Positions 16,978 through 33,208 of a stretch of DNA of 64,000 nt are shown piece by piece. The notes under the pieces were generated by a model. It was not told the DNA's origin, searched no databases, and saw only the letters and a program-made list of their open reading frames with translations. Position numbers and translations under genes: made by a program. Position 1 is the stretch's first letter, and every line of letters begins with the position of its first letter. The stretch is from a bacterium (GTDB lineage Bacteria > Babelota > Babeliae > Babelales > UBA12409): assembly GCA_021823685.1 (NCBI GenBank), contig JAKANL010000003.1:18189-82188 (forward strand), in the 5' to 3' direction.

Positions 16978-17601
16978 ATGATCAACAAGCGCACAGGAAG
17001 CCTGGAAATCATTTGTGGATCAATGTTTTCCGGCAAAACCGAAGAACTCATTCGCCGAATCAGACGCGCACAATATGCCCAACAATCGGTTATGTCGTTC
17101 AAACACAGTCTCGATCAGCGCCACGAAATAGAACAGGTATCCTCGCATAGCGGCATTCGATTAACAGCAATACCAACCGACAACCCTCAAACTATCGCAA
17201 ATTTTGTCACAACGGGCACGCAAGTCGTGGGTATTGATGAAATCCAATTTTTTTCTAACGACATTGTCGACGTCGTTGTTGATTTGATAGCGCAAGGTAA
17301 AAAAGTAATCGCTGGCGGTCTGGATCTCGATTTTCGTGGGATTCCATTCAGCTGTATGCCAACGCTTATGGCGCTGGCCGATTCCGTTACCAAATTAAAA
17401 GCTATTTGTATGCGCTGCGGGCAAGACGCGCATTTTTCACAACGCCTTATTAACGGCCAGCCAGCACTTTTTGACGATCCGATTATCTTGATCGGCGCAC
17501 AAGAATGTTACGAAGCACGGTGCCGCAGCTGTTTTGTTATCGATAAACAAATGCCTTTTGCGCAAAAAACTGCTCAGGAAAACCAACCAGAAATGATTTA
17601 G
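16978..17601 (+). CDS. tdk: thymidine kinase
   Basis: 207 aa. GSLEIICGSMFSGKTEELIRRIRR (P-loop), VVGIDEIQFF, and C-terminal Cys pairs CMRCG...ARCRSC, typical type II TK. Confidence 0.9.
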   Translation: MINKRTGSLEIICGSMFSGKTEELIRRIRRAQYAQQSVMSFKHSLDQRHEIEQVSSHSGIRLTAIPTDNPQTIANFVTTGTQVVGIDEIQFFSNDIVDVVVDLIAQGKKVIAGGLDLDFRGIPFSCMPTLMALADSVTKLKAICMRCGQDAHFSQRLINGQPALFDDPIILIGAQECYEARCRSCFVIDKQMPFAQKTAQENQPEMI

Positions 17602-17607
17602 TTATTC

Positions 17608-18978
17608 ATGCTACAAAAAGCCAAACAATGTTTTTCATGCACCAACTGCCAACACACCTCGGGAAAGTGGCAAGGCAACTGTCCAGAATGCGGTCAGTGG
17701 AATACGTTCGTTGAAGAATGTGTCACAGCAGCACACACAACGGGCAAAGCAGCGCGAGGTCCGATACTCGAACTCAGGCCGTTAAATCAAATTGCGCAAC
17801 ATGAGCTCAAGCGGATCACGACGCACTGCGGCGAATGGGATCGCGTTTTAGGCGGCGGTCTTATGCCCGGCTCTTTTATCATGCTCACGGGCGACCCCGG
17901 CATTGGCAAATCAACCCTTCTTTTACAAATTGCGCATCAGCTCGCGCACAAGCAAAGCGTTTTTTATTTTTCATCGGAAGAATCACTTGCGCAAGTAAGA
18001 GCGCGAGCACAGCGCATCGGCGCCATGCATGAGCAGCTCCTCTTTTCAGACAGTTCTGATTTAGATGCCATTATCGCCACAGCACTGGCTCAAAAGCCGG
18101 CCATTATTATTGTCGATTCTATTCAAAATTGTTATTTAACGGCGGCGGCTAACACGCTGAGCACCCCGGCACCGGGCAGTATTGGTCAATTACGTGAAGC
18201 CGGCTTTCGGCTCATGCGGCTAGCAAAAGAAGAAAATATTACCATTATTGCCACGGGCCATATTACCAAAGAAGGAGTCATTGCTGGACCAAAAACACTT
18301 GAACATATGGTCGACGCCGTATTTTACCTGCAAGGCGAAGATAAGTGGGATACGCGCATGTTGCGCGCCGTTAAAAACCGATTCGGCTCCATCAATGAGC
18401 TCGGTTTTTTTCATATGGACGAAAATGGCCTGAAAGAAATTCCTGATATCAATGAACATGTATTGCAGGAAGCAAGTTGTTCCCCCGGCGCCGCGCTGAT
18501 CAGCTATACCGAGGGTTCACGCCCCCTTCTTTTGGAGGTACAGGCGCTTACCATTCCGTCAAAATTAGGCATTCCCCAACGGGTTATCACCGGCGCAGAC
18601 CATAAACACGTGGTACTCATTGCCGCCATTTTGGAAAAATATGTACAGGTTAAATTGAGCATGCATGATATTTTTTTCAAAGTGAGCGGCGGCTTCAAAA
18701 TTAAAGAAAGTTCGGCCGATTTGGGTATCGCGCTCGCGTTACTTTCAAGCTACTTTCAACAAGCATTGCCCGCGCGCTGCCTAGCCCTGGGCGAAATCAG
18801 CTTGACGGGCACGATTAAACCGGTTAATCACTTCACGGTCCACATGCACGAAGCACAAAAATTTGGCTTTAAACAGCTCTTTGTGGCAAAAAATCAATCG
18901 CCAACAACGGCGAGCGGTATTGCGCGCGTCTCATTGGGGCATGTGTACGAACTCCTTTCGCTGTTCCAACCTTCGTAA
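17608..18978 (+). CDS. radA: DNA repair protein RadA/Sms
   Basis: 456 aa. N-terminal zinc finger CTNCQHTSGKWQGNCPECGQWNTF, Walker A GDPGIGKSTLLLQ, KNRFG motif, and a Lon-like C-terminal domain. Confidence 0.93.
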   Translation: MLQKAKQCFSCTNCQHTSGKWQGNCPECGQWNTFVEECVTAAHTTGKAARGPILELRPLNQIAQHELKRITTHCGEWDRVLGGGLMPGSFIMLTGDPGIGKSTLLLQIAHQLAHKQSVFYFSSEESLAQVRARAQRIGAMHEQLLFSDSSDLDAIIATALAQKPAIIIVDSIQNCYLTAAANTLSTPAPGSIGQLREAGFRLMRLAKEENITIIATGHITKEGVIAGPKTLEHMVDAVFYLQGEDKWDTRMLRAVKNRFGSINELGFFHMDENGLKEIPDINEHVLQEASCSPGAALISYTEGSRPLLLEVQALTIPSKLGIPQRVITGADHKHVVLIAAILEKYVQVKLSMHDIFFKVSGGFKIKESSADLGIALALLSSYFQQALPARCLALGEISLTGTIKPVNHFTVHMHEAQKFGFKQLFVAKNQSPTTASGIARVSLGHVYELLSLFQPS

Positions 18979-19019
18979 AATACCGCTATGCTAGCCAAAA
19001 TAGATTGAGGCATAAATCA

Positions 19020-19862
19020 ATGAAATTAGTTCTTTTATCACTCCTAATCAGCACATCTCTTGTGGCTATGGATCTTGAAGAATCATACGTCAGTGCACTT
19101 GGTAGCACCTACAAAAAAAGTACGAGCCCTGTATCAGCATCCTCGCTATCACCCTGGCCCGAATCGTTTGGCGAACAATCCTACGCCGAATCACTCTCTA
19201 GCAGCCCCTCAAATTTCGTTTTTGAGGCAGACCGAGAGATCGCAGTATCCTCCCCCGGCCAATCTGCCAACATAGGCCTACCCGTCGGCCTCGAATGGTG
19301 GCCACCGCTCCCCTGCCCAGCATCTCCGCCACCGACCTCCCAGCCAACAGCTAAAGAAGAACTGCTGTACGCTGCGCCCGAAGATTTGAGCAACGTGCAA
19401 GCTGATAAGCAGCCGATCAGGGATACGCGACGCTGGCATTCTTACCGGCTCGGGTATTTTAATCCTTCCCTTGAGACATGGTTCGAGAGCATTATGGGCA
19501 GCGCAAAACGAGCGCATAAACCGATCGAAATACCGCACGCCCCCGGACCAGTACGCAAGCAAACGCCCCCATCGGCTGACGATCTTGCCCGGCGACTTGC
19601 GTTACTTGACGCGCTCAGTTGCATACGAAGAAGCAGTCACGGTATATTAGTAACTTCAACCAAAGACGAAAGAGAAACCCATGACAAAATTTTTTCTCAC
19701 GACGGTACTGCTGATATTAGCCAACACAACAGAAGCAACGCACAAAATCCCGCTCGAGATCCTCTTCGGCAACCCCAAACAGAGGAACCTCAAAATATCT
19801 CCCGGTGGGCATTATATTTCGTATCTTGCCCCATTCAAGGGCGTCCTCAACCTGTGGGTTAA
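19020..19862 (+). CDS. hypothetical secreted Pro/Ser-rich protein
   Basis: ORF track gives 19005-19862. The ATG at 19020 gives signal-like MKLVLLSLLISTSLVA. The last ~180 nt overlap the next gene, so the 3' end is uncertain. Confidence 0.4.
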   Translation: MKLVLLSLLISTSLVAMDLEESYVSALGSTYKKSTSPVSASSLSPWPESFGEQSYAESLSSSPSNFVFEADREIAVSSPGQSANIGLPVGLEWWPPLPCPASPPPTSQPTAKEELLYAAPEDLSNVQADKQPIRDTRRWHSYRLGYFNPSLETWFESIMGSAKRAHKPIEIPHAPGPVRKQTPPSADDLARRLALLDALSCIRRSSHGILVTSTKDERETHDKIFSHDGTADISQHNRSNAQNPARDPLRQPQTEEPQNISRWALYFVSCPIQGRPQPVG

Positions 19863-21558
19863 ATCGGTTCATGACGATGATGCACGCGTGATAACCAACG
19901 ATACCGGCCGCGGCATTCATCAATACGTCTGGACGTTTGACGAAGAAGCGCTGCTCTATCTTTACGATGCAAACGGCCGCGAAAACCATCACCTGCACAA
20001 AGTAAGCTTGAAAACGGGTGCTGATACTGATCTGACCCCATTTGATAATACTGCTGTTCATATCGTTCAATATAGCCGCCGCGTACCCGATCGCATGCTC
20101 ATCGCCATGAATAAAGAACGCAAACATTTATTTGACGTGTACGAGCTTAATCTGAATACGGGCAGTATTATCCCCATCGAACAAAATCCGGGCGATATCA
20201 TGTACTTTATCGCCGACGATCAGCTTGCAATCTGCGGCGCCATGAGGGCGCTCCCCGATGGCGGCCAAACATTACTGATGCGCGATAATAATCAAAGCGC
20301 CTGGCACCCGTATATCACCTGGACGCTTGATGACGAGCATTCCGGCCCGCTCTGTCTACATAACGAGTTTCTCTACATGCTCGATTCATCGCAGGCCAAC
20401 ACCACCCAATTCGTTAAAATTAATATGAAAACCAACGAACGCACCATCCTGGCAAGCGACCCGGAATACGACATTGCCGACGTTGTTTTTCACCCTGAAA
20501 CGCACGAACCCGTTGCCATCGTCACCGTCAAAGAAAAAGAAGAGATACGTTTTGTTGATGCCAGTTTTGCGCAAGACGCACAAATCATCGATGCGGCACT
20601 TAAAGGCCCCTGGATTATTAACAGCGCAACGCTGAAACTGGATATCTGGCTTATTGCGGCGTATAGCGACGTATCAACAGCCAGCTATTATCTTTATGAT
20701 CGCGCAAGCAAAAAGCTCACATTTTTGTGCGCCTCGCGCCCAGAATTGGCGCAATATCAATTGCAACCGATGAAGCCCATAACATTCACCGCACGCGACG
20801 GCCTTACCATTCACGGTTATCTTACGCTACCCAGAAGCGAGCACAATAAACCAGTTCCGCTCATCTTGCTCGTGCATGGCGGCCCATGGTTACGTGACGG
20901 CTGGGATTTCGATCCTGAAGTACAGTTTTTGGCTAATCGCGGCTATGCCGTTTTGCAAGTTAATTTCCGCGGCTCAGATGGCTATGGCAAAGCGTTTCTC
21001 AACGCCGGCAATCACGAGTGGGGACGTAATATGCATAACGATCTTATCGATGCGGTAGCCTGGTCCATAAAAACCGGTGTCGCCGATCCAAAACACATCG
21101 CAATTATGGGCGGCTCGTATGGCGGCTATAGTGCATTGGCCGGTGTTACCTTTACCCCAGATACCTTTTGCTGCGCCGTCGATCTTTTTGGCATATGCAA
21201 TCTGATCACGCTCATCAAAAATTCTCCACCATATTGGCACCTTGCGTTGATCAAATTTGCCAAGCGTGTCGGAGATATTCATACACAAGAAGCACTGCTC
21301 AAAGAACGTTCGCCACTCTTTTACGCGACCAATATTAAAGTACCGGTACTCTACGCACAAGGGCTTAATGATATCCGCTGCACGCCGCTGGAAACTAAAC
21401 AAATGATTGCCGAGCATCAAAAACACCAGATTCCCTACGAATATTACGAATTTGAAAACGAGGGACATGGCTTGGCCAAACCAGAAAATAAGTTCAGGTT
21501 ATACGCAGCCATCGAAACGTTTTTGGCTAAGTATTTAGCCCCACAACCAGCCGCTTAA
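19681..21558 (+). CDS. S9-family serine peptidase (prolyl oligopeptidase / dipeptidyl aminopeptidase-like)
   Basis: 625 aa. Signal-like N-terminus, a beta-propeller-length N-half, and a C-terminal hydrolase with GGSYGGY (GxSxGG nucleophile elbow) and later D/H-containing blocks. Confidence 0.88.
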   Translation: MTKFFLTTVLLILANTTEATHKIPLEILFGNPKQRNLKISPGGHYISYLAPFKGVLNLWVKSVHDDDARVITNDTGRGIHQYVWTFDEEALLYLYDANGRENHHLHKVSLKTGADTDLTPFDNTAVHIVQYSRRVPDRMLIAMNKERKHLFDVYELNLNTGSIIPIEQNPGDIMYFIADDQLAICGAMRALPDGGQTLLMRDNNQSAWHPYITWTLDDEHSGPLCLHNEFLYMLDSSQANTTQFVKINMKTNERTILASDPEYDIADVVFHPETHEPVAIVTVKEKEEIRFVDASFAQDAQIIDAALKGPWIINSATLKLDIWLIAAYSDVSTASYYLYDRASKKLTFLCASRPELAQYQLQPMKPITFTARDGLTIHGYLTLPRSEHNKPVPLILLVHGGPWLRDGWDFDPEVQFLANRGYAVLQVNFRGSDGYGKAFLNAGNHEWGRNMHNDLIDAVAWSIKTGVADPKHIAIMGGSYGGYSALAGVTFTPDTFCCAVDLFGICNLITLIKNSPPYWHLALIKFAKRVGDIHTQEALLKERSPLFYATNIKVPVLYAQGLNDIRCTPLETKQMIAEHQKHQIPYEYYEFENEGHGLAKPENKFRLYAAIETFLAKYLAPQPAA

Positions 21559-21810
21559 AAAATAATTTCCGTTATTTTCCCATGCTAGAAAAATAATCGC
21601 CTTTTCCCACAAATAAGAAAATGCCGGGCCCACCCGACAAAGAAAATAATTTTGCGCAATTTTATCAAAAGTATTGCTTTCTGCAATTTTATTTTGGTAC
21701 CCTGAAGGTAGAAATGAGAGCAGTAGGTGCCTCCAAAAGTTGCGTGCTAAGCCCGGCTTAGTCTTATAAAAATCCCCCTAGGGCGGGTTTAGTACGCGCT
21801 GAATAACGTA

Positions 21811-21846
21811 GGGCCGCGGTTTAACGGCTGCGGCCCTGCCTTTTTC
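21811..21846 (+). terminator. candidate intrinsic terminator
   Basis: GGGCCGCGG-tttaacgg-CTGCGGCCC hairpin (one mismatch) followed by TGCCTTTTTC. Confidence 0.45.
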
Positions 21847-21921
21847 AAAATTCTTGCACATTGGTCTTTCGGCTTGATAGCCTGAAAGGCAAGTTTAAAC
21901 AGGCTTAAAAAGGAGCTTTTT

Positions 21922-22089
21922 ATGAAGAAATATGTGCCATGGATTGTTGTTGTCGGCCTTTTGATTGCCGGCCTTACGGCTTGGTACGTCTACAGTGCGG
22001 GTCATCCAACAATACAAACACCTACGTGCCCTACAGGGTCATCATGTCCTGAGGTTATAAAAGAGGCTAGGGATATGTCCGGAGTATAG
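21922..22089 (+). CDS. mini membrane protein, tandem paralog 1 (55 aa)
   Basis: ATG after AAAGGAG gives MKKYVPWIVVVGLLIAGLTAWYVYSAGHPTIQTPTCPTGSSCPEVIKEARDMSGV. Below the ORF-track size cut-off; translated manually. Confidence 0.5.
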   Translation: MKKYVPWIVVVGLLIAGLTAWYVYSAGHPTIQTPTCPTGSSCPEVIKEARDMSGV

Positions 22090-22131
22090 CCATCTGAAGA
22101 GTCATAGAAAAAATGTTATTAGGAAAATCGT

Positions 22132-22320
22132 ATGAAGAGATATTTACCATGGCTTGTCGCCATCGGCCTCATAATCGCCGGCGCTACGGTTTGGTACGTG
22201 TACAGCGATGCCACGAGCAGTGAAAGCACGCCAACAAAAACAAAACAATGCTCGGGATGCCCCAAAACTGAAACCGAAGATGAAGTTATAAAAGTGACTG
22301 AGGCTATATCCCCAATGTAG
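22132..22320 (+). CDS. mini membrane protein, tandem paralog 2 (62 aa)
   Basis: MKRYLPWLVAIGLIIAGATVWYVYSD...CSGCP...EVIKVTEA. The same leader AGAAAAAATGTTATTAGGAA.ATCGT precedes paralogs 2 and 3. Confidence 0.55.
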   Translation: MKRYLPWLVAIGLIIAGATVWYVYSDATSSESTPTKTKQCSGCPKTETEDEVIKVTEAISPM

Positions 22321-22357
22321 CCGAAGGGTCACAGAAAAAATGTTATTAGGAAGATCG

Positions 22358-22474
22358 TTGAAGAGATATTTACCATGGTTCATCGCGATTGGGCTTATCA
22401 TCGCCGGCGCCACGGTTTGGTTTACGGTCAACAACATAAAAAAATCCGATCATCCAACCGTGCAGACCGGATAA
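22358..22474 (+). CDS. mini membrane protein, tandem paralog 3 (38 aa, TTG start; possibly decaying)
   Basis: LKRYLPWFIAIGLIIAGATVWFTVNNIKKSDHPTVQTG. The start context CGTTGAAG versus CGTATGAAG in paralog 2 suggests a 1-nt loss that destroyed the ATG. Confidence 0.35.
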   Translation: MKRYLPWFIAIGLIIAGATVWFTVNNIKKSDHPTVQTG

Positions 22475-22511
22475 AAAGGTAGCATAAGCTAAAATGTAAA
22501 AACCCCTTTTC

Positions 22512-22598
22512 GGCTGGCTCAAGTTGGTCGAATCTGGCGCGCAAGAAATCACGATCGAAAGCCAGGATGACGAGCACTACACGATAACGGGAAAATGA
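22512..22598 (+). pseudogene. 3' remnant of an EndoU-immunity-family gene
   Basis: GGCTGGCTCAAGTTGGTCGAATCTGGCGCGCAAGAAATCACGATCGAAAGCCAGGATGACGAGCACTACACGATAACGGGAAAATGA is near-identical to the last ~85 nt of 26420-26785 (…WLKLVESGAQEITIESQDDEHYTITGK*). There is no upstream ORF. Confidence 0.75.
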
Positions 22599-22615
22599 AG
22601 CATGGTGCTTGGCTT

Positions 22616-23761
22616 TTAATTCGGCCTGGTCCCCTCGCCCAGGATAGTAAGATATCGCGCATACACAAATCGCCGCCCACGTTTTTTACCGGTAATTTCT
22701 TTCAAGATCCCGATTTTTTCAAATTGATTGATCAGATTTGAAGCCGCTTGATGAGAAAGCTTAAATTCACGCTGTACATCGCTAACACGTATTAACGGCG
22801 TATAAAAAAGCTTATCTAATAACATGATTGCAAGCGGTGATGATATCCTTCTTTTTCCAAGCAGCGCCTGATGTGTTTCGCGTAACTGTAGTATGCGTTT
22901 AATGTTTTCAGTAGCATCTTGGCATGTTTGGATAACGCCAACCAAAAAAAACTCTACCCACTGCTCATAATCGCCTTTTTCGCGTACAAGCGTAAGCCGA
23001 TCATAGTATTCTTGACGATTTTTTTTCAAATAATAACTCAAATACAAAAGAGGCTTTTTAAGAATGCCACGCCAATAAAGATAAAACGTGATAAGTAAGC
23101 GTCCCAACCGTCCGTTGCCGTCCAAAAAGGGGTGGATGGTTTCAAACTGATAGTGAATCAACGCGCAGTTGATCAGTTCCGGCATCACCGATTTTTTATG
23201 CATGTATACTTCAAGATCGCCCATGGCTTTTAACGCCTCAGCTGGCGTTGGCGGAACGTAACGAGCCGTTTTCATGGTACAGCCAGGAGCTCCGATCCAA
23301 TTTTGTATTTTTTTAAATTCGCCGGGTGTCTTTTCTGCGCCGCGTACACCCTTAAGCAAAATCGCATGCAACTCTTTGATAAGCTTCAGGCTCATAGGTA
23401 ATGAATCGAGTCGATCGATACCATAGTGAAGCGCTTTAATATAATTTACAACTTCGACAACATCATTGACGTTTTCAAGCTTGGCACCACTTTCGAATTC
23501 AAAGACGTCTTCAAGCGAGGCTTGCGTACCTTCGATCTGGGCGCTCAATAATGCTTCTTTTTTTACGTACATGGTAATAAAAAGATCGGTGTTGGGCAGG
23601 GCATAAGCCATACCGTCCAAACGTGCAAGATGGAGAGTCGCATCCCACAGAAGTTTTTGCATGTTCTCGTTAATATTAATCGCTGGATGCGGCGGCAAGG
23701 ATGTTGGTACAAAAGCCTTGAACCCAGCCGGTTGATTTACATAAATACCACTTCGATTCAT
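22616..23761 (-). CDS. Fic-family protein (AMPylase-type) with N-terminal inhibitory-helix motif and C-terminal wHTH
   Basis: 381 aa. Fic motif HPFLDGNGRLGRLL (HxFx[D/E]GNGRxxR). N-terminal SAQIEG fits (S/T)xxxE(G/N). The C-terminus looks like a winged helix. Confidence 0.9.
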   Translation of the reverse strand: MNRSGIYVNQPAGFKAFVPTSLPPHPAININENMQKLLWDATLHLARLDGMAYALPNTDLFITMYVKKEALLSAQIEGTQASLEDVFEFESGAKLENVNDVVEVVNYIKALHYGIDRLDSLPMSLKLIKELHAILLKGVRGAEKTPGEFKKIQNWIGAPGCTMKTARYVPPTPAEALKAMGDLEVYMHKKSVMPELINCALIHYQFETIHPFLDGNGRLGRLLITFYLYWRGILKKPLLYLSYYLKKNRQEYYDRLTLVREKGDYEQWVEFFLVGVIQTCQDATENIKRILQLRETHQALLGKRRISSPLAIMLLDKLFYTPLIRVSDVQREFKLSHQAASNLINQFEKIGILKEITGKKRGRRFVYARYLTILGEGTRPN

Positions 23762-23788
23762 CTAACCCTCGTTTTTTACGTATGTTAC

Positions 23789-23893
23789 TTATTCAGAATT
23801 CCCTGAATAATAAGCCCCCCAATATTCTCGTTATTCAAAAATACTTACATAACGCCCCTTATTTTGCAACGTTATTCAAAAATACTTACATAA
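23789..23893. promoter_or_regulatory. inverted and direct repeat array (TGAATAA/TTATTCA half-sites) between Fic and toxin 1
   Basis: TTATTCAG-aattcc-CTGAATAA (23789-23810). A 24-bp direct repeat CGTTATTCAAAAATACTTACATAA occurs at 23829-23852 and 23870-23893. The CCCTGAATAA...CGTTATTCAA arrangement recurs at 57083-57120 upstream of toxin copy 3. Confidence 0.4.
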
Positions 23894-23990
23894 GAACACA
23901 AAGCTACTGCCCGCTCATCGAGTCTGTCGCACTGAGCAACGACACCTCAAAAAAGCAAAGAATATCTTTAGACAATGAGAGGTACGTTCC

Positions 23991-24020
23991 TTGAATAACT
24001 TTGAGACAATGCGCTAAGCT
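23991..24020 (+). promoter_or_regulatory. candidate sigma70-like promoter TTGAAT-18-TAAGCT of toxin 1
   Basis: TTGAAT (23991-23996), 18-nt spacer, TAAGCT (24015-24020), ~36 nt before the GTG start. The same hexamers and spacing occur at 33209-33238. Confidence 0.4.
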
Positions 24021-24056
24021 GCCGAAAATGTTTGGGAGGTCTTTAGGGGAGTTGTA

Positions 24057-26423
24057 GTGAAGCGATTGGGAATATTTTTTGCACTTACCGTGCAAGGGTT
24101 GGGGGCAATAAATAGCGAAGTACAATGGCACGATCTTCAAGATTTTTGTATGGGTTTACGGGAAAGTCCTTCGCCCATAAAAGTCCAGTCGAGAAACGAA
24201 TTTGTTGATGGTGGTTCGGCGCTTATTGATTGGGTTGTTCGGCAACATGATTACGGACCTGTAGATTACGAAAATTTTCAAAGCTCACCGAGCGAACAAA
24301 CTTCTTCGCAGAAAGATACTGCGTCACCAACAGATTCCGTTCAGCCCCTAGGCGGGAGGCCCCGCTTCGCTCAAGCTTCCGCCTTCGCTAAAGCTACTGC
24401 GGACAAGATGGCGGACAGGTCTCCGGGCAGCCAGCGATTGACCCCGAAATCCCCCGCTCACTGTTTGAAAAAACTCTCCACTCACAAAAAACTCTCCGCT
24501 CACACTGAGCTTGTCGAAGTGTGCCCATCTTCTCGCCCAGGGCAACACCCGCAGGGCAAGACCCAAAATTTAAAAAATGTTAAAAAAGCTGCAGTTTTCA
24601 AAAGCATGCTCCAACAAAGTAGTAGTATTTCGCAAGTCAAATTGCTTTATACAAACTACTGTTCGCAACTCGATAACCATTTGCTCAATCCAGCCAACTA
24701 CCAGTTGATCGATAAGCGCGTTCGTGCGCTCAAAGCAACGCTCGATCATCCGGGCCAGATTCAGGAGCGAAACATAAAATTTTCAGCGCAAGAACGAGCC
24801 GAGCTTTTAAAATCTGGCGTATCGGCGGCAGCTCTCGCCTCTCTGCGTGGCAGTGCCGCGCAGCTTGAACTGCACGAAGAATACACGTCCGTCTTTGAGC
24901 AATGGGCACAAAAGAGCCACGAAATCCGACGCTCGCTCGTGCAAGAAAGTATTGCGCAGATAACATTACAGTTTGCTGATCTTGCCGATGAATGTAATCG
25001 TAGCAATAATCTTGCTGGCAGTTACGCCATGGCCGACGTTATGCACGCGGCGTGGCAGAGTGTGCAAGAATTTTTTACGCTGGCCAAAGCGACAGCACAG
25101 GTCGATTACGAAGTTCTGGGCATACTGGGCGCAAGCGCGCTTGACGGAGCTCTCTGTGCCGGCTGTTCAACGGCGCAGGCGATCAGCCATCCGGTTCAAA
25201 CGCTCAAGGCTCTTGGCTCAACAATTGCGCGCGTAGCATATACGGCAGATATTTTGCTCGGTAATGATAAGCAGCGCAGTGCCCAAACGCGCGCTGAACT
25301 TTATGCCATGCTCAAGGCAGCAGCCAACGAATTGTCTGCCAAAGCACAATCCCAACACCCCCTCATGACGTTCAGTGACTGCGTATCCGGCGGCACGCAG
25401 TTTGTTGCCGAAGGCGTATTGGCTTCCAAATGCATGACGCTATCAGCAAACGTTCTGAGCAAAAGCGCACAAGCACTTAACAAACTTCCTGAACTGGCAA
25501 AAACAGCCGGCACCAAAATCCGCTTGCCCCTCACCGGCCCACAACGCGAACTGGCTCTTGCGCACGCCCAGGCAAGTATAGGTGAGGGATTTATTGAGGA
25601 AATGGCCCGCGCACAGACAGGTATTAGCGGAGCCCGGCGTAGCCCGATCGTAGCCACGCCCAGCCGTCGCCAAGGGCTATGGCGGGCACGGGTCGAAGAG
25701 GGGCGAAGACGGGTGCTCAAGCAAGAGCAAGAGGCGGTTCAAAAGATACCGGCTCAACAGGCTACTCCAAACGCTTCTGCCGGTTTACAATCGCAAAAAC
25801 CGTCTGCCCAACCGACGACGCCAGTTTCTCCTTCCGGTTTGCAGCCAGCCGTGCCGGGAAAACCGTCGGTTACCACCGCTTTTCCCGGGCCGTTACCAGC
25901 GCCGGGTACCCAGCAACTGCTCAAAGTGTTTGCCCTGCCAGAGCAGCAACGTGCGGCAATTATTGCGCGATACGGCAAACCCATTCCAGAAATTGGTGGC
26001 GGACAATTTAAAAATCCGCTTCACTTAATTGCGATTGATGTGAGAAAAATTGATCAAAAAACGGGTATTGTCAAAGAGTGGATGGGTTTTCACCATGATT
26101 ACCAGCATGTGTTTGAACGTAACAATGTGATTACCTTAACCGAAAAACAAAATTTGGGCGGAGGATTTTACAAAGCAAAACCAATATATGGCACGCAAAT
26201 TCCGAAGTGGAAATCGTTTTTCCCTGCCGAGTGGCCACCGGAAAAGGTTTTTGAAAAGGTTATCGAAGCACACAATAATATAAAAGATATACTGCCTGCG
26301 AGGGGTGGCAGGAAAGAATTAATTGGTTGGCTTGAGCATGAACAAAAAGCAATATCGATTATCGTTGATGACAACAAAGATATTATTACCGCATATCCGA
26401 ATTTTTCTTACCGAGGAAGATGA
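24057..26423 (+). CDS. Sec-signal polymorphic-toxin-like protein with EndoU-like RNase C-terminal domain (copy 1)
   Basis: GTG start after GGGGAG. Signal-like MKRLGIFFALTVQGLGA. The C-terminal ~170 aa read ...PLHLIAIDVRKIDQKTGIVKEWMGFHHDY...KSFFPAEWPPEKVFEKVIEAHNNI...ISIIVDDNKDIITAYP. This fits my memory of the bacterial EndoU nuclease toxin pattern (HIL.G...G.H...K..FP..W....I......I.VV.....I.TAYP). No Rhs/YD, LXG, PAAR or haemagglutinin repeats recognised. Confidence 0.75.
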   Translation: MKRLGIFFALTVQGLGAINSEVQWHDLQDFCMGLRESPSPIKVQSRNEFVDGGSALIDWVVRQHDYGPVDYENFQSSPSEQTSSQKDTASPTDSVQPLGGRPRFAQASAFAKATADKMADRSPGSQRLTPKSPAHCLKKLSTHKKLSAHTELVEVCPSSRPGQHPQGKTQNLKNVKKAAVFKSMLQQSSSISQVKLLYTNYCSQLDNHLLNPANYQLIDKRVRALKATLDHPGQIQERNIKFSAQERAELLKSGVSAAALASLRGSAAQLELHEEYTSVFEQWAQKSHEIRRSLVQESIAQITLQFADLADECNRSNNLAGSYAMADVMHAAWQSVQEFFTLAKATAQVDYEVLGILGASALDGALCAGCSTAQAISHPVQTLKALGSTIARVAYTADILLGNDKQRSAQTRAELYAMLKAAANELSAKAQSQHPLMTFSDCVSGGTQFVAEGVLASKCMTLSANVLSKSAQALNKLPELAKTAGTKIRLPLTGPQRELALAHAQASIGEGFIEEMARAQTGISGARRSPIVATPSRRQGLWRARVEEGRRRVLKQEQEAVQKIPAQQATPNASAGLQSQKPSAQPTTPVSPSGLQPAVPGKPSVTTAFPGPLPAPGTQQLLKVFALPEQQRAAIIARYGKPIPEIGGGQFKNPLHLIAIDVRKIDQKTGIVKEWMGFHHDYQHVFERNNVITLTEKQNLGGGFYKAKPIYGTQIPKWKSFFPAEWPPEKVFEKVIEAHNNIKDILPARGGRKELIGWLEHEQKAISIIVDDNKDIITAYPNFSYRGR

Positions 26424-26785
26424 TGAAAAAACTGGTATTGGTCGATAGCGAGCATGGCTACTGGAAGACGAAAGAAGATTTTGATGATGATATGGATCTT
26501 TTAAGAGCATTTCTGAATAGCAATCCAGTGCCTGACCTAAAAGAGTTTCTTGACGATCTCAATAAAGATTGGGAATTCGGGGGGGGGGATCTTGTAAATT
26601 TTGAACGTCATGATGGCCAAATAACGTTGGGCTATGATTTTGAGGACGACGGACACAAATTTACGATCAAAGAAAGTGAACTCGAAAAACTTATCATCGA
26701 CTGGCTCAAGTTGGTCGAATCTGGCGCCAAAGAAATCACGATCGAAAGTCAGGATGACGAGCATTATACGATAACGGGAAAATAG
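26420..26785 (+). CDS. candidate cognate immunity protein (copy 1)
   Basis: 121-aa ORF whose ATG overlaps the toxin stop (ATGA). Acidic. Paralogs sit in the same position after toxin copies 2 and 3. No family recognised. Confidence 0.7.
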   Translation: MMKKLVLVDSEHGYWKTKEDFDDDMDLLRAFLNSNPVPDLKEFLDDLNKDWEFGGGDLVNFERHDGQITLGYDFEDDGHKFTIKESELEKLIIDWLKLVESGAKEITIESQDDEHYTITGK

Positions 26786-26789
26786 AGGG

Positions 26790-27025
26790 CGCGTGGGGGC
26801 ACCCTTCGATGAAGCGCATATCGCGCGGAATCTCGTCGCAACCTAGGACCGCACCAACGATCTACCTGCGTAGCCCGAGCGTAGCTTTAGCGTAGACGGG
26901 CGTAGGTGAACCCAGCCGTCGCCCATGTGAGCTATGGCGCCAGCCAGGCGTAGCTTAGCATTTCTTCGAAGAAATACCTGCGTAAGCGAAGACTGGCGCG
27001 CAGGCAGGATGAGCGGAGGAACGTG
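26790..27025. repeat. GC-rich palindromic intergenic repeat cluster, copy R2
   Basis: Starts right after the immunity stop. GCACCCTTCGATGAAGCGCATATCGCGCGGAATCTCGTCG parallels 58967-59015. GAACCCAGCCGTCGCCCATGTGAGCTATGGCG is the rc match of 15371-15406. Ends with GGATGAGCGGAGGA. Confidence 0.65.
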
Positions 27026-27136
27026 CAAAACAAAGCCCCATGTTGTCATGAGGCTCGATTAATTTATTTATTAAATTATTGCAAATTGGATTATATGCAT
27101 GTTAGGCTGAAAGTAAGTTTAAAAGAGGAGAACAAG

Positions 27137-27265
27137 ATGAATAGGTATGTATTACTTAGCCTGTTTGCTGCAATCTTTGTTACGGCTTTAGCAGACAGAA
27201 AATACGTCTGTAAGGTGGTTAGGGACCGCGTTGTATGCGTATACGATCCCAGCGCTTCCAGCTAA
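27137..27265 (+). CDS. small secreted peptide candidate (42 aa)
   Basis: ATG 7 nt after AAGAGGAG gives MNRYVLLSLFAAIFVTALADRKYVCKVVRDRVVCVYDPSASS (signal-like, then a Cys-containing tail). Part of track ORF 27023-27265. Confidence 0.4.
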   Translation: MNRYVLLSLFAAIFVTALADRKYVCKVVRDRVVCVYDPSASS

Positions 27266-27440
27266 GTTTCTCACCCCGCTCGTTGAGCTTCGAAAAACAG
27301 ACAAGTGCGAAGTAGGGGCCTGTTTGCCGCAATCTTTGTTACGGCTTCAGTTAAAGCATTTCTTGTCGACCTGTTCTGCGAAGCTTTTTACTCCGCTCGC
27401 TGAGCTTCGAAAAATAGGCAAAAGCGAAGCAGAAAGATAT
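27255..27440. repeat. GC-rich palindromic intergenic repeat cluster, copy R3
   Basis: Two units of ...CCGCTCG(T/C)TGAGCTTCGAAAAA(C/T)AG... (27275-27300 and 27379-27417). Also a duplicated fragment of the small-peptide gene (GCCTGTTTGCCGCAATCTTTGTTACGGCTTCAG, about 27318-27350). Confidence 0.65.
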
Positions 27441-27539
27441 TGAGGCTAAAGACCAACAACAAGGCACCCCTACGTCGGCTATGGGCGCATCACCTAAGGT
27501 AAAGAGCTGTATTGGCCTTCCGTGGGAATGCTAAAGTCG

Positions 27540-28730
27540 TCAGGGTACAACCACAGCCAGCAGTCGATCCCTCACTGGATTGGGGATGTTAAGAGCTTGA
27601 CGCGTTTGATCTGATGGATGCTGAAATGTCTGTTGAACCCCATTGATGGCCGTATGCGCTGAGTACATGTTAAAAAACAAGGACAGAAGCGTATTTTTAA
27701 ACTTCTTGGCAGCGCAATGTCCTGGAACTATGTTACGAATAGTCAATTCGTCTGTAGCGCCCCATAAGCCAAAAGAAACCGCCAAACGACCTGCGGCATT
27801 GCCGTACTTCCGGGTAACTTCTTCCGCCCGTTCACCGCTCGCAAATGATACGAGCGATGCTATCGCTTCGTTATCCAACATGCAATACCCAACATATGAC
27901 GTCCCGCCTGATACTGCTGCGAGTGCGAGCAATTCTGCCGTATCGGTTAGGCCTGTTCTGTGCTTACGGAACCAATTTTTGATTTTACCGAGGCACGTTT
28001 CGGGAACGATAACGCCGCTTGGCTCTTTGCCCTTGTCTAGCGCAGCTACTGGCTGCTTTAACTTGGCCAATTCTTGGACCGTCAACCCACTTTCTATATC
28101 CAGCTCCATCAGCGGCCCAACAGCTTGGGACTCTCGCTCTTTTTCAGCCGCCTTGGACGCCACTTCTTGCGTCAAAATACCTGTGGCTTGTGTGTCAAGC
28201 GTTTGCTTAGATTTTTCAGTACCCAACCTGCCAGGATACAATTTTTCACAAGGCCCATCTGCCGCAGTCAATAAATCTTTAAGTTGCTCTTTAAGGCTTT
28301 TTGGCGTTGGCGAATCCGAATCTGATGACGAGTTAAGCGGCGATTCATACGGCGGCGAATCTGAATCTGGCGGTGAATCTGAGCCTGATGAAGAGTAAAG
28401 CGACGGTTCGTACGGCGGCGAATCTGAACCTGATGAAGAGTTTAGTGGCGATTCGTATGGCGGCGAATCGGTTGCCAACGAACCAGCGTCTGATGAAGAA
28501 CTTGAATATCTTTGATCTGGCGATTGACTTCGTGGCGTTGATAACCCAGCCTTTTCCAGAGCGTCTCTCAGAGGAAGATTTTTAGTCTCCATTGCATATA
28601 AACAACTATTGATTACTGCTACCCCCACCAAGACTTTCAGCATATCTTTGCATCTGATCATGATACACCTGTACTTTCCGCAATCCCCAGGTTTAATACT
28701 CTTAATTTCCATTGTACTCTTTTTTTTCAT
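27540..28730 (-). CDS. hypothetical secreted protein with Ser/Pro tandem repeats and hydrophobic C-terminal domain (family member 1)
   Basis: 396-aa ORF. Probable start at M30 (28643), giving MLKVLVGVAVINSCLYA. Repeats SDSPPYE(S/P)(P/S)L(N/Y)SSSGSD. The C-terminal hydrophobic region resembles that of the three genes downstream. Confidence 0.6.
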   Translation of the reverse strand: MKKKSTMEIKSIKPGDCGKYRCIMIRCKDMLKVLVGVAVINSCLYAMETKNLPLRDALEKAGLSTPRSQSPDQRYSSSSSDAGSLATDSPPYESPLNSSSGSDSPPYEPSLYSSSGSDSPPDSDSPPYESPLNSSSDSDSPTPKSLKEQLKDLLTAADGPCEKLYPGRLGTEKSKQTLDTQATGILTQEVASKAAEKERESQAVGPLMELDIESGLTVQELAKLKQPVAALDKGKEPSGVIVPETCLGKIKNWFRKHRTGLTDTAELLALAAVSGGTSYVGYCMLDNEAIASLVSFASGERAEEVTRKYGNAAGRLAVSFGLWGATDELTIRNIVPGHCAAKKFKNTLLSLFFNMYSAHTAINGVQQTFQHPSDQTRQALNIPNPVRDRLLAVVVP

Positions 28731-28855
28731 TTTGTCAAGTTTTTTAGAGCATAAAAGCGCTTTTTATCGCTCTTTTTAGGCTCTCTATTTCAAAAATTTG
28801 TTTATATTCCCCGCTCAATTTAAGCCTTCAGAGCTCTATTTACACCACATTGTTT

Positions 28856-29761
28856 TTAAGCCGCATGCTCTTTTGCCTGCGCAATTCTTCGCTCAAGCGC
28901 GGGCAGCAGCTCTTTTACATGAACTGCCGATGAAAGCCTCAGCATACGCTGGGTAATCGACAATCGATTATGCTGATCTTGCGCGCTCAGACGCTCAAAA
29001 TCAGGAAAATAGGTCTGCCAAAGCATGGTCAATGGCGGCATCGTATTCGAATGATCTTTGGCAAGATTAAAGTATTCTGAACACAGCCTAAGAAATGCTT
29101 GCTGCTCAGGCACGGGCCAGCAACTAATCGTATCATAGAGCACGCGCAACTGTGCCCGACGGTAATATTCATTGGCAACGCTCGCGCTCCCCAAACAAAC
29201 CATGTAAAGCCACAAATAGCCCGTATCTGGCAATTGAAAGCCAAGAGCGCGGTAATAGTTAAGCGCTACGTCGACGGGAATCTCAATGGCACAAGCAAGC
29301 ACAACCTTCCACAATGGCCAACGATCACCAGGCCCGAAGGCGGTCGCCGTTCCGGTGGCAATGGAGGCAAGCTGTGGAAACTCGGTGTTACCGCCCCACC
29401 ACACCTCAGTATTGATACCAAAAGTAGCCGTAGCCAGTAACGCCGTCTCCAACGCATTACGCGCTGGCTCACTCAGCCGCCACCATGCGCGGCTAACGCC
29501 TCTTCCGCACGATTGGCAGCCATGCCACAACCCAAGACACCAGCGAACTGGAGCCGCGTGCTGCTGCAGCACAACGGGGCGCTCTTCTTCCATTTGTTCG
29601 ATCGATTGCGCATCAGCAAGTAAATGGCTCGTTAATGCCACTTGACGATCACTCGACATACCAGCGAGCTGATTTATGAGGCCAACACACAAAAACGCGT
29701 ATAATAATTTTTTGCTCAACATGATAAACCTTTCTTCAACGACCGTTTTAACGTCTCGCAT
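28856..29761 (-). CDS. hypothetical secreted membrane protein (family member 2)
   Basis: 301-aa ORF; probable start at 29722 (MLSKKLLYAFLCVGLINQLAG). Central block ...SRAWWRLSEPARNALETALLATATFG...IEIPVDVALNYY... aligns with 31719-32753 (...DSWRGLSQGTRNTLVVSILLATTLA...IEVPVDVTTNWF...). Confidence 0.6.
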   Translation of the reverse strand: MRDVKTVVEERFIMLSKKLLYAFLCVGLINQLAGMSSDRQVALTSHLLADAQSIEQMEEERPVVLQQHAAPVRWCLGLWHGCQSCGRGVSRAWWRLSEPARNALETALLATATFGINTEVWWGGNTEFPQLASIATGTATAFGPGDRWPLWKVVLACAIEIPVDVALNYYRALGFQLPDTGYLWLYMVCLGSASVANEYYRRAQLRVLYDTISCWPVPEQQAFLRLCSEYFNLAKDHSNTMPPLTMLWQTYFPDFERLSAQDQHNRLSITQRMLRLSSAVHVKELLPALERRIAQAKEHAA

Positions 29762-31331
29762 GAACCGATAAATACCCAGGTTCTGGAGAATTTTTCGCTG
29801 TTCCCGATGAGCTCCCTGCCGAGCTCGTAGCGCCTTCAGCAGAAGGCGTAATCACGATTTGTGGCGCATCGGCACTGGTTAATCCACATGACTCTTTTTT
29901 AAGTACAATGTCGGACAAGTCTTGGTTCGCTGCTGCTAAATCAAGGCGTTGATCCACCATGAGCTTAATGCCAGCCTGCACAAGTTCGGCATATCGCACT
30001 CGCTCAACGTCACTCCAATTTTTAAAGTCACCAACAAAAACCAGGCAAATCGCCGACGTCATCGTAAAATCGATTTGACTAAGCGCTGGCACACGCGTCC
30101 CCTTAACAATCTCCAACAGATCTTGCGTGATAGGAGCTTGCTGAGCAAGCGCCTCAAATCCCAACGCACCACGAAACTTTGCGTAATGTGCAAAATCGTC
30201 AGTTGGATCGGAAAACTGTTGAATACGATTCAATAATTCGACGACAATTTTTAAATGATACCTTTGTCCCGTTGCATCTTGGCTTCCAAACGGATCCCAT
30301 ATACGCAAACAAGTATCATACAAAGCGCTGAGCGATTCTTTCCCATCGGTAGCAATAAACTTTTTCATCGATTCAGGAGTAGGGTCGCTTGGTAGCGCAT
30401 CAATAACGGTTTTGAGTTGTTCAAATGTTGTACCACTGTTGTATAGCTGGTCCAAACACCACACAAAAAGCTCGACAAAGTTTACCTGCATTTCCTGCGG
30501 GAAGCGCTGTATTTGAGGATCATTGGAGCAAAAGGCAACAACATCCTGCCAAAGCTCTTCCTGGGTCAATTGGCTATTTTGATGAACGCGTAAATAGGCG
30601 GCAAGCATATCAGCAAAGAGGTCCTTTTCAAAACCAGCATTGTAATAGGCATTGAAGGGAATGCGATAGCCGCGGCGAACACGCAATTCATTGAACATGA
30701 TCGCGACAGCCGTCGAAAGTGCATATAACGAGACTAGACCGGTTTTTCTGTATTCATTTTTAAGAGCATCAATCTGAGAACACATATATACGTCTCCGGC
30801 AATTACCCCGCTGCAAATAAGGAGCTTGAGCCAGAAATTATATCGATCAGTAATATTAGCCGCTGCTTTTCCCATCAAAATCGCGGCACTCATTGAGATA
30901 CCGCTGCGATTGACGGCATGCGCTAAAACGTTAGCACCCACTTGAGCGGTTGTTATCCCCAGCGTTAAAAGAACATCTTTTGCCCATCGCGGCAATTTTT
31001 GCACATATACCGAACAGCACCCGGGCTCTTCTTCGCGTACCCCGCCAGCCTGCCCAGCAACTGGGCTCATTGACGAACTGGCAGCGGCCGGCGCAGATGG
31101 CCCAGCGGGCGAACCAGAATCAGAAGACATCTCGCCCATTTCAACAGCGCAAGGCGCGGCTAAAAGCGATTGTTTGAGTTCTTTCTGACGTGCAATAACT
31201 AATTTTTCTTTGCCATCATCGCGCTCCATACCGATCAAAGGCATAAAGGCCAGACACAACATGGCGTATAAGACATGACGAGAATTCATAGTACCTCCAT
31301 TAAGTACTTCTTTAGCTACCATAATCCCCAT
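29748..31331 (-). CDS. hypothetical secreted membrane protein (family member 3, long C-terminal extension)
   Basis: 527-aa ORF. The N-terminus MGIMVAKEVLNGGTMNSRHVLYAMLCLAFMPLIGMER is near-identical to that of 31719-32753. Hydrophobic middle. No family recognised. Confidence 0.65.
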   Translation of the reverse strand: MGIMVAKEVLNGGTMNSRHVLYAMLCLAFMPLIGMERDDGKEKLVIARQKELKQSLLAAPCAVEMGEMSSDSGSPAGPSAPAAASSSMSPVAGQAGGVREEEPGCCSVYVQKLPRWAKDVLLTLGITTAQVGANVLAHAVNRSGISMSAAILMGKAAANITDRYNFWLKLLICSGVIAGDVYMCSQIDALKNEYRKTGLVSLYALSTAVAIMFNELRVRRGYRIPFNAYYNAGFEKDLFADMLAAYLRVHQNSQLTQEELWQDVVAFCSNDPQIQRFPQEMQVNFVELFVWCLDQLYNSGTTFEQLKTVIDALPSDPTPESMKKFIATDGKESLSALYDTCLRIWDPFGSQDATGQRYHLKIVVELLNRIQQFSDPTDDFAHYAKFRGALGFEALAQQAPITQDLLEIVKGTRVPALSQIDFTMTSAICLVFVGDFKNWSDVERVRYAELVQAGIKLMVDQRLDLAAANQDLSDIVLKKESCGLTSADAPQIVITPSAEGATSSAGSSSGTAKNSPEPGYLSVHARR

Positions 31332-31520
31332 AGTTATATCCTAACAAATATATTCAATTTGTCAACCAATACAACAAAATAATTCAAAATAAGCAAAATA
31401 AGTAATGTATATTTTTATCGCCAAGATTAAGTATGAAAGAGGCTAAAAGATTGTCAACAAGGGGAAAAACGACTGTCATAGCAACGTGATAATGTCATAT
31501 TCACTGCAACAGAAAATATC

Positions 31521-31691
31521 ATGAGAAAATTGATGCTTGAGCATGGATTGCCTGTTGGCTTTTATACCAATCGAGGGTCTGTCTTCAAGGTTTACCCTTT
31601 GGCTCCAAAGTGGCGCTTACAGTCTCAAAATGAGCTAAGGACGCCTAAAAATGATTTTCTCATAAAAAAGCCGCGGTTTGCCGGAGCTTAA
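31521..31691 (+). pseudogene. possible DDE integrase/transposase core fragment
   Basis: A 56-aa ORF MRKLMLEHGLPVGFYTNRGSVFKV... The G.P..FYT(D/N)RGS.F string resembles the rve integrase-core block. It is an isolated fragment. Confidence 0.3.
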
Positions 31692-31718
31692 CAGCTTGTA
31701 AAGACTTTAAAAAACGCA

Positions 31719-32753
31719 TTAAACCGCTTGCGCAGATTGCGCTTTAACTAATTTTGCTTTCAATACTTCTTGAAGCTTTGGTATCGCACCTAGATCCCTC
31801 CACGCAATGACCTTTTCTACTTGAAGACTCGCGCGATCAAGATCACGGACTTCCCAGCCAAAAGCGCGCGCATCTTCTTGATAGAGTGAACGAATAGCGG
31901 CCACTCGTTGCGTAAGGGTTGCGGGTGTACGATCATCACGCTCAATCTTTTGGAGCGCATCAATTACTTTAGGCGCCACGCTTAAGGCCAAGGCCAATTC
32001 GCGCAATGTCCATCTGCGTGCTTCGCTCACCGCTTCGCGTTTATTTTTTTCAACCATTATGCTTGAAAGGCCAGTAAGTCCCATCGCCACAGCAAGAAAA
32101 CCAGTGTGCGGACAATGCATCTGCCCAGCGCGCGCTAAAAACCAATTAGTTGTCACGTCAACAGGCACTTCAATGCCAACCGCTAAGGCTTTGCCCCAAA
32201 AGGCATATTTTGCCAGTGGGCCATAACCCATAGCAACGCCCGTTGCGGCATGAATAAGCGCGGGCACCAACTCATTGCCCCCAAATGCATCCTCTGCCGA
32301 CGCTGCTAATGTGGTAGCTAAAAGTATTGAGACAACGAGGGTGTTTCGCGTTCCCTGCGATAAGCCGCGCCAGGAATCGGTGATATGGTTCCCGCACGAA
32401 TGCATACTTTCTCTGACACGCTGCCAGCAGCTTGGGCTTGGCCGAGCGGCATCACGATGCACCACGACAATCGGCGTTTTGGTCGGAGAAGATTCAACAA
32501 CGCTCGTATTAGGCATAGCTAAAGCGGCAGATGGTGCAGCAGCACCAGAACCCATGTCGCTCATTTCAACAGCAGGCGCTGCTAAAAGAGGCCTTCTAAA
32601 TTCGCTCGCCCAACCGGACTTTTTGCCCTTGCTATCGAAACGCTCCATGCCGATTAATGGCACAAAAGCCAGACAGAGCATGGCGTATAAGACGTGACGA
32701 GAATTCATCGAGCCTCCATTTATGAATACTTCTTTAGTTCCAATAATTCCCAT
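31719..32753 (-). CDS. hypothetical secreted membrane protein (family member 4)
   Basis: 344-aa ORF with N-terminus MGIIGTKEVFINGGSMNSRHVLYAMLCLAFVPLIGMER. Paralog of 28856-29761 and 29748-31331. The upstream ~130 nt are also duplicated. Confidence 0.65.
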   Translation of the reverse strand: MGIIGTKEVFINGGSMNSRHVLYAMLCLAFVPLIGMERFDSKGKKSGWASEFRRPLLAAPAVEMSDMGSGAAAPSAALAMPNTSVVESSPTKTPIVVVHRDAARPSPSCWQRVRESMHSCGNHITDSWRGLSQGTRNTLVVSILLATTLAASAEDAFGGNELVPALIHAATGVAMGYGPLAKYAFWGKALAVGIEVPVDVTTNWFLARAGQMHCPHTGFLAVAMGLTGLSSIMVEKNKREAVSEARRWTLRELALALSVAPKVIDALQKIERDDRTPATLTQRVAAIRSLYQEDARAFGWEVRDLDRASLQVEKVIAWRDLGAIPKLQEVLKAKLVKAQSAQAV

Positions 32754-32894
32754 AGATACATCCTAATAAAATATTCAATTTGTCGGTTTAGAATCGGATT
32801 TAATTTAAAATAAGCAAAATAAATAATGCGTTTTTTGCTCCAACGTTAAGTATGAAAGAGGCTAAAATATTGTCAATAACTGGCCAAACGACCA

Positions 32895-33070
32895 GAATTT
32901 GCGAAAGCCACCCAAGCCGGACATTCTTCGCCATACTACGGCGGGCAGGCTTGGCCAAAGCGCATGTATAATGGGCGGCTGCGAAGTGCCAACAGGCCTG
33001 CCCGGTGAAGCTTTTACTCCGCTCGTCGAGCTTCGAAAAACAAGCAAGCGAAGTCGGGCGCGAATGCCAA
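32895..33070. repeat. GC-rich palindromic intergenic repeat cluster, copy R4
   Basis: Contains TGAAGCTTTTACTCCGCTCGTCGAGCTTCGAAAAACAAG (33007-33044), the same unit as 27379-27417 and rc 15412-15450. Confidence 0.65.
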
Positions 33071-33208
33071 ATTTCATAAAAAATTAACCCTTCAGCATGC
33101 TCCACAAATCCTGATTCTTACGTGCGCCCATTTTTACACAAGAGTGGCGATTGGCTCCATGGCAATATTGGGTTTTTTGTTGTTAAACCAAATTGCCGTT
33201 ACTGTGCT

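Follow-up and report, generated by a model that had tools for sequence, protein, structure and literature searches.

The 64,000-nucleotide (nt) window analysed here (contig JAKANL010000003.1 of GCA_021823685.1, contig positions 18,189-82,188, forward strand) comes from a bacterium whose GTDB lineage is Bacteria; Babelota; Babeliae; Babelales; UBA12409. It carries two paralogous genes, toxin A and toxin B, that appear to encode polymorphic toxins with EndoU ribonuclease tips. We propose, with a probability of about two in three, that at least two ectopic gene conversion events have taken place between these old paralogs, in the region encoding their scaffold. The genes, their candidate immunity open reading frames (ORFs) and the proposed tracts are:

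24057-26423, + strand: toxin A, an ORF of 788 amino acids (aa); the identical protein is present in ENA and NCBI records.
26420-26785, + strand: candidate immunity ORF of toxin A (immA), 120-121 aa, overlapping the toxin stop codon.
38607-41042, - strand: toxin B, 811 aa, GTG start, same architecture as A.
38242-38610, - strand: candidate immunity ORF of toxin B, 122 aa, overlapping the toxin stop codon.
26789-38238: bracketed segment between both toxin-immunity modules.
24996-25165, + strand: putative conversion tract 1, A side; a single mismatch over the 119 nt of 25047-25165, with an 84-nt perfect match at 25047-25130.
39871-40040, - strand: putative conversion tract 1, B side; the 84-nt perfect match is at 39906-39989.
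25250-25502, + strand: putative conversion tract 2, A side; ~92% identical, with perfect runs of 61, 38 and 30 nt.
39513-39765, - strand: putative conversion tract 2, B side, placed from the inverted-repeat piece and the mismatch map.

Toxin A begins with an N-terminus that resembles a signal peptide, putatively of the Sec type, and a variable N-region. A helical scaffold core (aa ~195-490) and a P/Q/A-rich linker come next, followed by a conserved pre-toxin segment and the C-terminal EndoU nuclease domain. The EndoU_bacteria match (Pfam PF14436) spans aa 676-781 in toxin A (E 2.2e-5; its 25.3 bits equal the gathering score) and lies just above the gathering score in toxin B (E 2.8e-6, 28.1 bits). 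A small ORF overlapping the stop codon of a toxin gene is in the usual position of an immunity gene, and the one beside toxin A is also called as a gene in record L001. No family in Pfam or NCBIfam matches the immunity-like ORFs, which in the three copies of the module (120-122 aa; the third is described below) share 59-62% mutual aa identity (A vs B 59%), paralleling the divergence of the tips. Judged on these features, A and B appear to be polymorphic toxins, each paired with its own putative immunity gene. The EndoU tips (25996-26420 and 38610-39040) have a GC content of 0.38-0.39 and a GC content at third codon positions (GC3) of 0.31-0.35, against a GC content of 0.48-0.60 in the rest of the toxin genes, which suggests that these AT-rich cassettes have a separate origin. 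Promoter and terminator consensus scans gave background levels only and were not used.

The ORF list and alignment place A and B as paralogs in opposite orientation, and a repeat search of the window recovers inverted-repeat arms at 24632-26788 and 40404-38239, in several pieces with 75-90% complementarity. Toxin B is 64% identical to toxin A at the aa level across 91% of A, and blastn aligns the genes at 84% over 24632-25502 and 72% over 25714-26788. Repeat search, ORFs and blastn all agree with the first-pass annotation, made from the sequence alone, that inverted copies surround 26.8-38.2 kb.

Along the two genes, the similarity is a mosaic. In a codon-aware alignment the N-terminal ~195-230 aa are weakly alignable (nt identity 32-64% over most of this part), with a nonsynonymous divergence (dN) of 0.71-0.74 and a synonymous divergence (dS) of ~1.5-1.7, and the earlier claim that the N-terminal ~200 aa are far more diverged than the centre is borne out. 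The shared core is 72-83% nt identical and contains two blocks at 90-99%. Between the tracts lies a divergent patch with a 21-nt indel (25166-25249), tract 2 has 19 differences in 250 nt (25250-25499), and the alignment collapses past 25502, at a B-specific insertion. The mismatch map records 1 difference in 25050-25149, 29 in 25200-25249 and 71 in 25500-25549; tract boundaries are sharp and coincide with indels. The longest perfect A/B matches are 84, 61, 38, 34 and 30 nt, so the first-pass description of central blocks near-identical over several hundred nt is too strong. Its interval, 24880-25480, does hold the most similar DNA of the pair, but as a mosaic of two tracts plus a divergent patch. 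The out-of-frame ORFs on which it relied do reveal DNA identity; they are not genes, as they have stops or dN/dS of at least 1.

Synonymous sites carry the case for conversion. Between A and B, dS is 0.84 in the left part of the core (core-left), 0.14 in tract 1 (over 24996-25133), 0.58 in the patch between the tracts, 0.22 in tract 2, 1.63 in the linker and 2.13 in the EndoU domain, while dN/dS stays within 0.11-0.21 wherever the genes are homologous (24631 onwards), except that the pre-toxin segment has 0.08. Because dS falls while dN/dS stays at ~0.2, the tracts point to younger shared ancestry and not to stronger constraint. Where the two proteins have the same amino acid, the codon is identical at 104 of 117 positions inside the blocks vs 197 of 319 outside them (Fisher p = 1.2e-8). 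A max-chi-square scan, which is independent of how the blocks were defined, picks 24858-25524, a result matched by 0 of 1000 permutations.

A third, degraded copy of the toxin gene was used as the outgroup. It and the other remnants of the family in the window are:

57209-58919, + strand: copy 3, a degraded paralog in two overlapping frames.
58551-58919, + strand: immunity-like ORF of copy 3, intact.
22510-22596, + strand: orphan immunity 3' fragment, 87 nt, 93% identical to the immA 3' end (blastn).
37777-38079, - strand: orphan EndoU tip (Pfam EndoU_bacteria, E 5.7e-7).
37357-37776, - strand: ORF after the orphan EndoU tip, 139 aa.

Copy 3 is a deletion/frameshift derivative that has lost exactly the central scaffold, which corresponds to A aa ~291-565, and with it the tract region, so the outgroup test covers the flanks only. 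Because the three-way dS (A, B, copy 3) is 0.82/1.14/1.01 in core-left and 1.48/1.78/1.78 in the pre-toxin segment plus EndoU domain, the three copies are roughly equidistant and old outside the tracts, with the central A-B tracts likely 4-10 times younger. The part deleted from copy 3 is the same region that is homogenised between A and B. The orphan immunity fragment lies upstream of a Fic-domain gene (22616-23761, - strand) and toxin A; an earlier cassette probably left it as a scar.

In the mechanism that we favour, non-reciprocal homologous recombination would have replaced ~170 nt and ~250 nt, in the part of one copy that encodes the scaffold, by the corresponding sequence of its paralog. 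The donor would be the other intragenomic copy, and the exchange would have been carried out by the host's general recombination machinery. Tract 1 appears to be younger than tract 2. Now and then, recombination across this homology could end in a crossover, which would invert ~14.8 kb. Where the first-pass annotation had spoken of recent gene conversion, the conversion itself is supported by the depressed dS at unchanged dN/dS, but its recency is only relative, because tract 2 is ~8% diverged vs ~0.01% between populations of the same organism (1-2 substitutions in 13-22 kb separate an independent metagenome population from the window). On the timescale of strains, the events are not recent.

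The converted region seems to encode part of an old, sparsely distributed scaffold domain, since it has few relatives and a distant one, P0118, shares it. A word-indexed search of 5.8 billion protein clusters with the toxin found only A and B; one of the entries, P0003, is a variant of toxin B with one residue different and is no help in detecting conversion. In an exhaustive HMMER search of 1.84 billion representatives, more than 150 matches cover only aa ~655-785, the EndoU tip or the stretch just upstream. The exceptions that reach beyond the tip are fragments of copy 3 (P0004 and P0006), a family-like EndoU C-terminal protein (P0005) and two distant proteins, one of which, P0118, aligns with residues 158-487 of A at 25% identity and has an unrelated C-terminus and a small ORF after its gene. 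No toxin relatives were found in the GTDB species genomes or JGI metagenomes searched, and a PDB sequence search gave no match. For the central scaffold, only helices are predicted; two of them are moderately hydrophobic, and each tract encodes one. An AlphaFold2 model of toxin A from a four-sequence alignment was unusable (pLDDT, the predicted local distance difference test score, 34.8). No secretion or trafficking domain was matched in A or B, where EndoU is the only Pfam or NCBIfam match, and by hydropathy the hydrophobic, signal-peptide-like N-terminus is the sole trafficking-type feature visible. Variation is greatest in the first ~200 aa of the toxins, which is atypical for polymorphic toxins. 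Such a scaffold, with two distant matches in 1.84 billion representatives, may interest cataloguers of secretion and trafficking domains.

Several points weigh against conversion as the explanation. The tract dS values rest on 46-86 codons and have wide errors. The central region has the lowest dN of the genes (0.03-0.04) and is their most protein-constrained part; because of this low dN, and because the scaffold is common to P0118, part of the central nt similarity is plain purifying selection. Only two sequences carry the central region, from which the donor and direction of conversion are not determinable. An equal two-sequence pattern would also result if the same external allele had been imported into both copies, or if a younger partial duplication had been followed by replacement of its flanks.

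The last of these is the rival that survives best, though we consider it unlikely. It holds that the centre shows the true age of a recent duplication (dS ~0.2), and that the remainder (the N-terminal part, linker, toxin tip and immunity gene of one or both copies) was displaced by diverged alleles from other strains. Cassette displacement is typical of polymorphic toxins. Separately acquired cassettes are suggested here by the low GC content of the EndoU tips (0.38-0.39 vs 0.5-0.6 elsewhere in the genes), the orphan remnants at 37777-38079 and 22510-22596 show past cassette turnover, and a two-sequence mosaic cannot tell which of its parts is the old one. Against this, the scenario needs replacement on both sides of the centre plus the 84-nt patch at 25166-25249. 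The near-equidistance of A, B and copy 3 in core-left and the tip is more simply explained by an old three-way paralogy with later A-B exchange. Neither the 5.8 billion nor the 1.84 billion protein set, in which the lineage is poorly sampled, contains external donor alleles.

That no recombination occurred, and that the central blocks simply encode a conserved helical scaffold under the strongest constraint in the protein, is very unlikely. The low central dN speaks for it, as does a scaffold that can still be traced, at 25% identity, in a distantly related toxin-like protein with a different C-terminus. However, purifying selection on the protein lowers dN and not dS, whereas dS here drops 4-10 fold at a dN/dS of ~0.2. 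The pre-toxin segment (LPAPGTQQLLKVFALPEQQRAAIIARYGKPI) provides, within the same genes, a picture of protein-level conservation alone: dN between A and B is about 0, yet dS is 0.46 (0.8-1.5 vs copy 3). This segment and the 3' end of the immunity gene were considered as further conversion tracts and rejected, as dN is about 0-0.08 but dS 0.46-1.8, which is protein-level conservation. Overlapping genes in the five other frames across the tracts were likewise rejected on account of stops and/or dN/dS of at least 1; the toxin frame is the only stop-free one (dN/dS 0.15-0.21). One antisense frame with a low dN/dS (0.20-0.37) has stops in both copies, and its low value is attributed to a third-position phase artefact with the sense frame. 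Because no alternative frame looks coding, the conservation of silent sites cannot be put down to an overlapping gene. The tracts show no GC3 or codon-composition anomaly, and GC3 is not raised, giving no sign of biased conversion.

A crossover between inverted repeats by RecA-type recombination inverts the intervening DNA, and the first-pass annotation had suggested that the copies could flip the ~11.5-kb segment between them. The idea is possible in principle, given the inverted repeats and five perfect runs of at least 30 nt, but the data lend it no support. An inversion product was built in silico with the crossover placed in the 84-nt perfect run. It inverts 14.8 kb (25101-39935) instead of ~11.5 kb, taking in both toxin 3' halves and both immunity genes, and yields in-frame chimeras of 790 and 809 aa, each made of the N-terminal half of one gene and the C-terminal half of the other and each beside its cognate immunity ORF. 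Because both genes are complete before and after, inversion would swap promoters and N-terminal regions only; it would be nearly neutral, with no ON/OFF switch logic.

The assemblies show the reference arrangement only, not both orientations. In ERZ27237563 (megahit, k=141), contig k141_756021 corresponds to window 14057-27574 and contig k141_115660 to 51042-28607; each matches the window at 99.99% identity and runs collinear with it across the tracts, with no break there. Since k=141 exceeds every perfect A/B repeat, this is the one independent assembly able to resolve the repeat. Short contigs of GCA_027347085.1, Logan SRR13300764 and ERZ27237587 carry only B-type sequence (100%) as far as their ends. 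The GCA_027347085.1 contig starts at 39979, within the 84-nt perfect run, and the Logan contig at 39612, within the 38-nt perfect run; contig ends inside perfect runs are ordinary k-mer breakage. Neither the word-indexed search nor the HMMER search found a chimeric A/B protein, and a Pfam scan of 27 window ORFs, a subset of the ORFs present, revealed no recombinase family. There is no sign of inversion at detectable frequency.

An active system in which ~11.5-15 kb flips with appreciable frequency, reshuffling N-terminal halves and promoters with tip/immunity modules, is therefore highly improbable. It could draw on the inverted orientation, on the perfect runs of 30-84 nt, on the past recombination intermediates between the copies evidenced by the conversion tests, and on a GC skew that in the 24-42 kb island (about 0 to +0.16) deviates from both flanks (-0.07 to -0.2). 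Besides the spanning k141 contigs, the purely B-type contig ends in three other assemblies or samples, the missing chimeras and the missing recombinase, it has against it that the homology is 8-16% diverged with a perfect run of at most 84 nt, at which crossovers are rare by general knowledge of RecA-dependent recombination, and that both products would be functional equivalents. GC skew was also considered as a tracer of past inversion and set aside as uninformative: the island departs from the flanks, but not as their mirror image. Its skew is possibly compatible with foreign origin and is not diagnostic of inversion. Also highly improbable is that the inverted toxin genes are a low-frequency shuffling device of a host-dependent bacterium, in which scaffold crossovers swap the highly divergent N-terminal regions (for targeting or secretion) and promoters among different EndoU tip/immunity modules and flip the ~15-kb effector island; were it true, there would be subpopulations with different toxin delivery specificities, and the conversion tracts would be a by-product of a homology region kept for shuffling.

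One further change within the toxin family is a 63-nt insertion in B just after tract 2 (KTMADKMADRASG, window 39440-39499). Over 60 nt it matches the N-terminal region of A at 24371-24429 (KATADKMADRSPG) with 82% identity (E 7e-9). This short piece has changed position within the family.

The bracketed segment contains, besides the orphan EndoU tip and the ORF after it, the following:

26789-38238 (within), - strand: four ORFs without Pfam families.
33278-34435: second, unrelated toxin with a PT-HINT pre-toxin domain and a colicin-E3-like 'Cytotoxic' domain.
34439-35647: ankyrin-repeat protein, 402 aa.
36139-37236: repeat-containing ORF with three ~270-nt tandem repeats (61-77% identical) at 36476-37215.

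The ankyrin protein immediately follows the PT-HINT/E3 toxin, where an immunity gene would be expected. ORF 36139-37236 has no Pfam family. The stretches 31103-31473 and 32528-32892 are 76-82% identical at a constant spacing of 1419-1425 nt; they are the 5' ends and upstream regions of ORFs 29748-31331 and 31719-32753 (- strand, no Pfam family), which are a tandem paralog pair. Contigs from GCA_027347085.1 and Logan SRR13300764 both end exactly at 37742; a hairpin with a perfect 10-bp stem (37703-37725) lies 17 nt away. The sequence at this contig end has no repeat in the window, and the end may mark a junction that varies between strains or a repeat that lies in another part of the genome.

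Elsewhere in the window, 54515-55252 encodes a 245-aa protein with a RING finger (zf-RING_2) and ankyrin repeats, a eukaryote-like E3-ligase-type architecture suggestive of a host-directed effector. An intergenic repeat of ~25-48 nt with a small palindrome (CCGCTCGYTGAGCTTCGAAAAA) occurs at least four times at 90-96% identity (27276-27300, 27386-27420, 33012-33042 and, inverted, 15409-15456). Just upstream of the orphan immunity fragment, a ~75-146-nt unit that encodes a small hydrophobic peptide (KRYLPWLVAIGLIIAGATVW) is repeated in tandem at 21921-22421; its three copies are diverged (79-86% nt).

RadA, encoded beside the island, is 59-63% identical to RadA of Candidatus Dependentiae/Babeliales metagenome-assembled genomes. 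The gene order murA-tk-radA is all that the Dependentiae loci found via RadA have in common with the window, and the toxin island is missing from those genomes. Because of this similarity and synteny, the host is a Dependentiae-like bacterium, presumably associated with protists. No paper mentioning both Dependentiae and polymorphic toxins was found in the literature search.

The synonymous-site test documents scaffold-mediated sequence exchange between polymorphic toxin paralogs in a poorly known protist-associated lineage. For annotation, the locus offers three EndoU modules, orphan cassettes and a HINT/colicin-E3-type toxin, grouped in a toxin/immunity island, and a place where short-read assemblies of the organism break exactly at the conversion tracts. 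It opens no long-standing question, and inversion, if it occurs, is functionally bland.

Shufflons, invertons and Hin/Gin-type switches use short specific sites, a dedicated invertase and one promoter or one constant N-terminal part. Like these site-specific invertible elements, the locus has inverted repeats around a segment and C-terminal coding parts that are exchangeable in principle. What sets it apart from them is that the repeats consist of diverged coding sequence 2.2 kb long, that no invertase turned up among the ORFs scanned and that each gene is complete; it does not qualify as a site-specific invertible switch.

EndoU (PF14436) C-terminal domains occur in polymorphic toxins, CdiA-CT among them, in the classification of Zhang, Aravind and colleagues. 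A and B share with EndoU polymorphic toxins the C-terminal EndoU_bacteria domain, a small immunity-like gene directly downstream, multiple paralogs and orphan cassettes; the island contents are the standard anatomy of polymorphic toxin loci. They differ in that their N-terminal and central parts match no known trafficking domain (type V, VI or VII secretion system (T5SS, T6SS, T7SS), MafB or LXG). CdiA features are missing from the A and B translations, with no FHA/haemagglutinin repeats by Pfam and no VENN motif, the proteins are only ~800 aa, and no CdiB/POTRA family was found among the same 27 scanned ORFs.

Homologous recombination between paralogous immunity or toxin genes is reported for the T7SS EsaG/TsaI arrays (Garrett et al. 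2022, PMC9484751) and the Neisseria MafB cassettes (Jamet et al. 2015, PMC4287609). The likeness lies in intragenomic recombination of non-identical paralogs giving mosaic toxin/immunity genes. Those systems are mostly tandem direct-repeat arrays giving deletions and expansions, whereas here there are two inverted full-length genes 12 kb apart.

The name Rhs stands for 'rearrangement hot spot'. In Salmonella rhs-main/rhs-orphan, recombination occurs within shared homology (Koskiniemi et al. 2014, PMC3967940). As in Rhs, A and B are paralogous toxin genes with a conserved core upstream of a variable tip and immunity gene, the shared core is a substrate for homologous recombination (there with tip reassortment), and orphan tip/immunity remnants lie near the main gene. 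Unlike Rhs, A and B have no YD/Rhs repeats, PAAR or DPxGL motif (Pfam), the scaffold is an almost family-less helical region, and the recombination seen is patchy conversion with no observed rearrangement; the copies are also inverted, so that a crossover would invert and not delete or duplicate. A and B are thus not members of the Rhs or CdiA families. The evolutionary logic is nonetheless the same as for Rhs, contact-dependent growth inhibition (CDI) and Maf toxins, and by analogy with them, conversion through a shared toxin core would be ordinary behaviour for such toxin genes.

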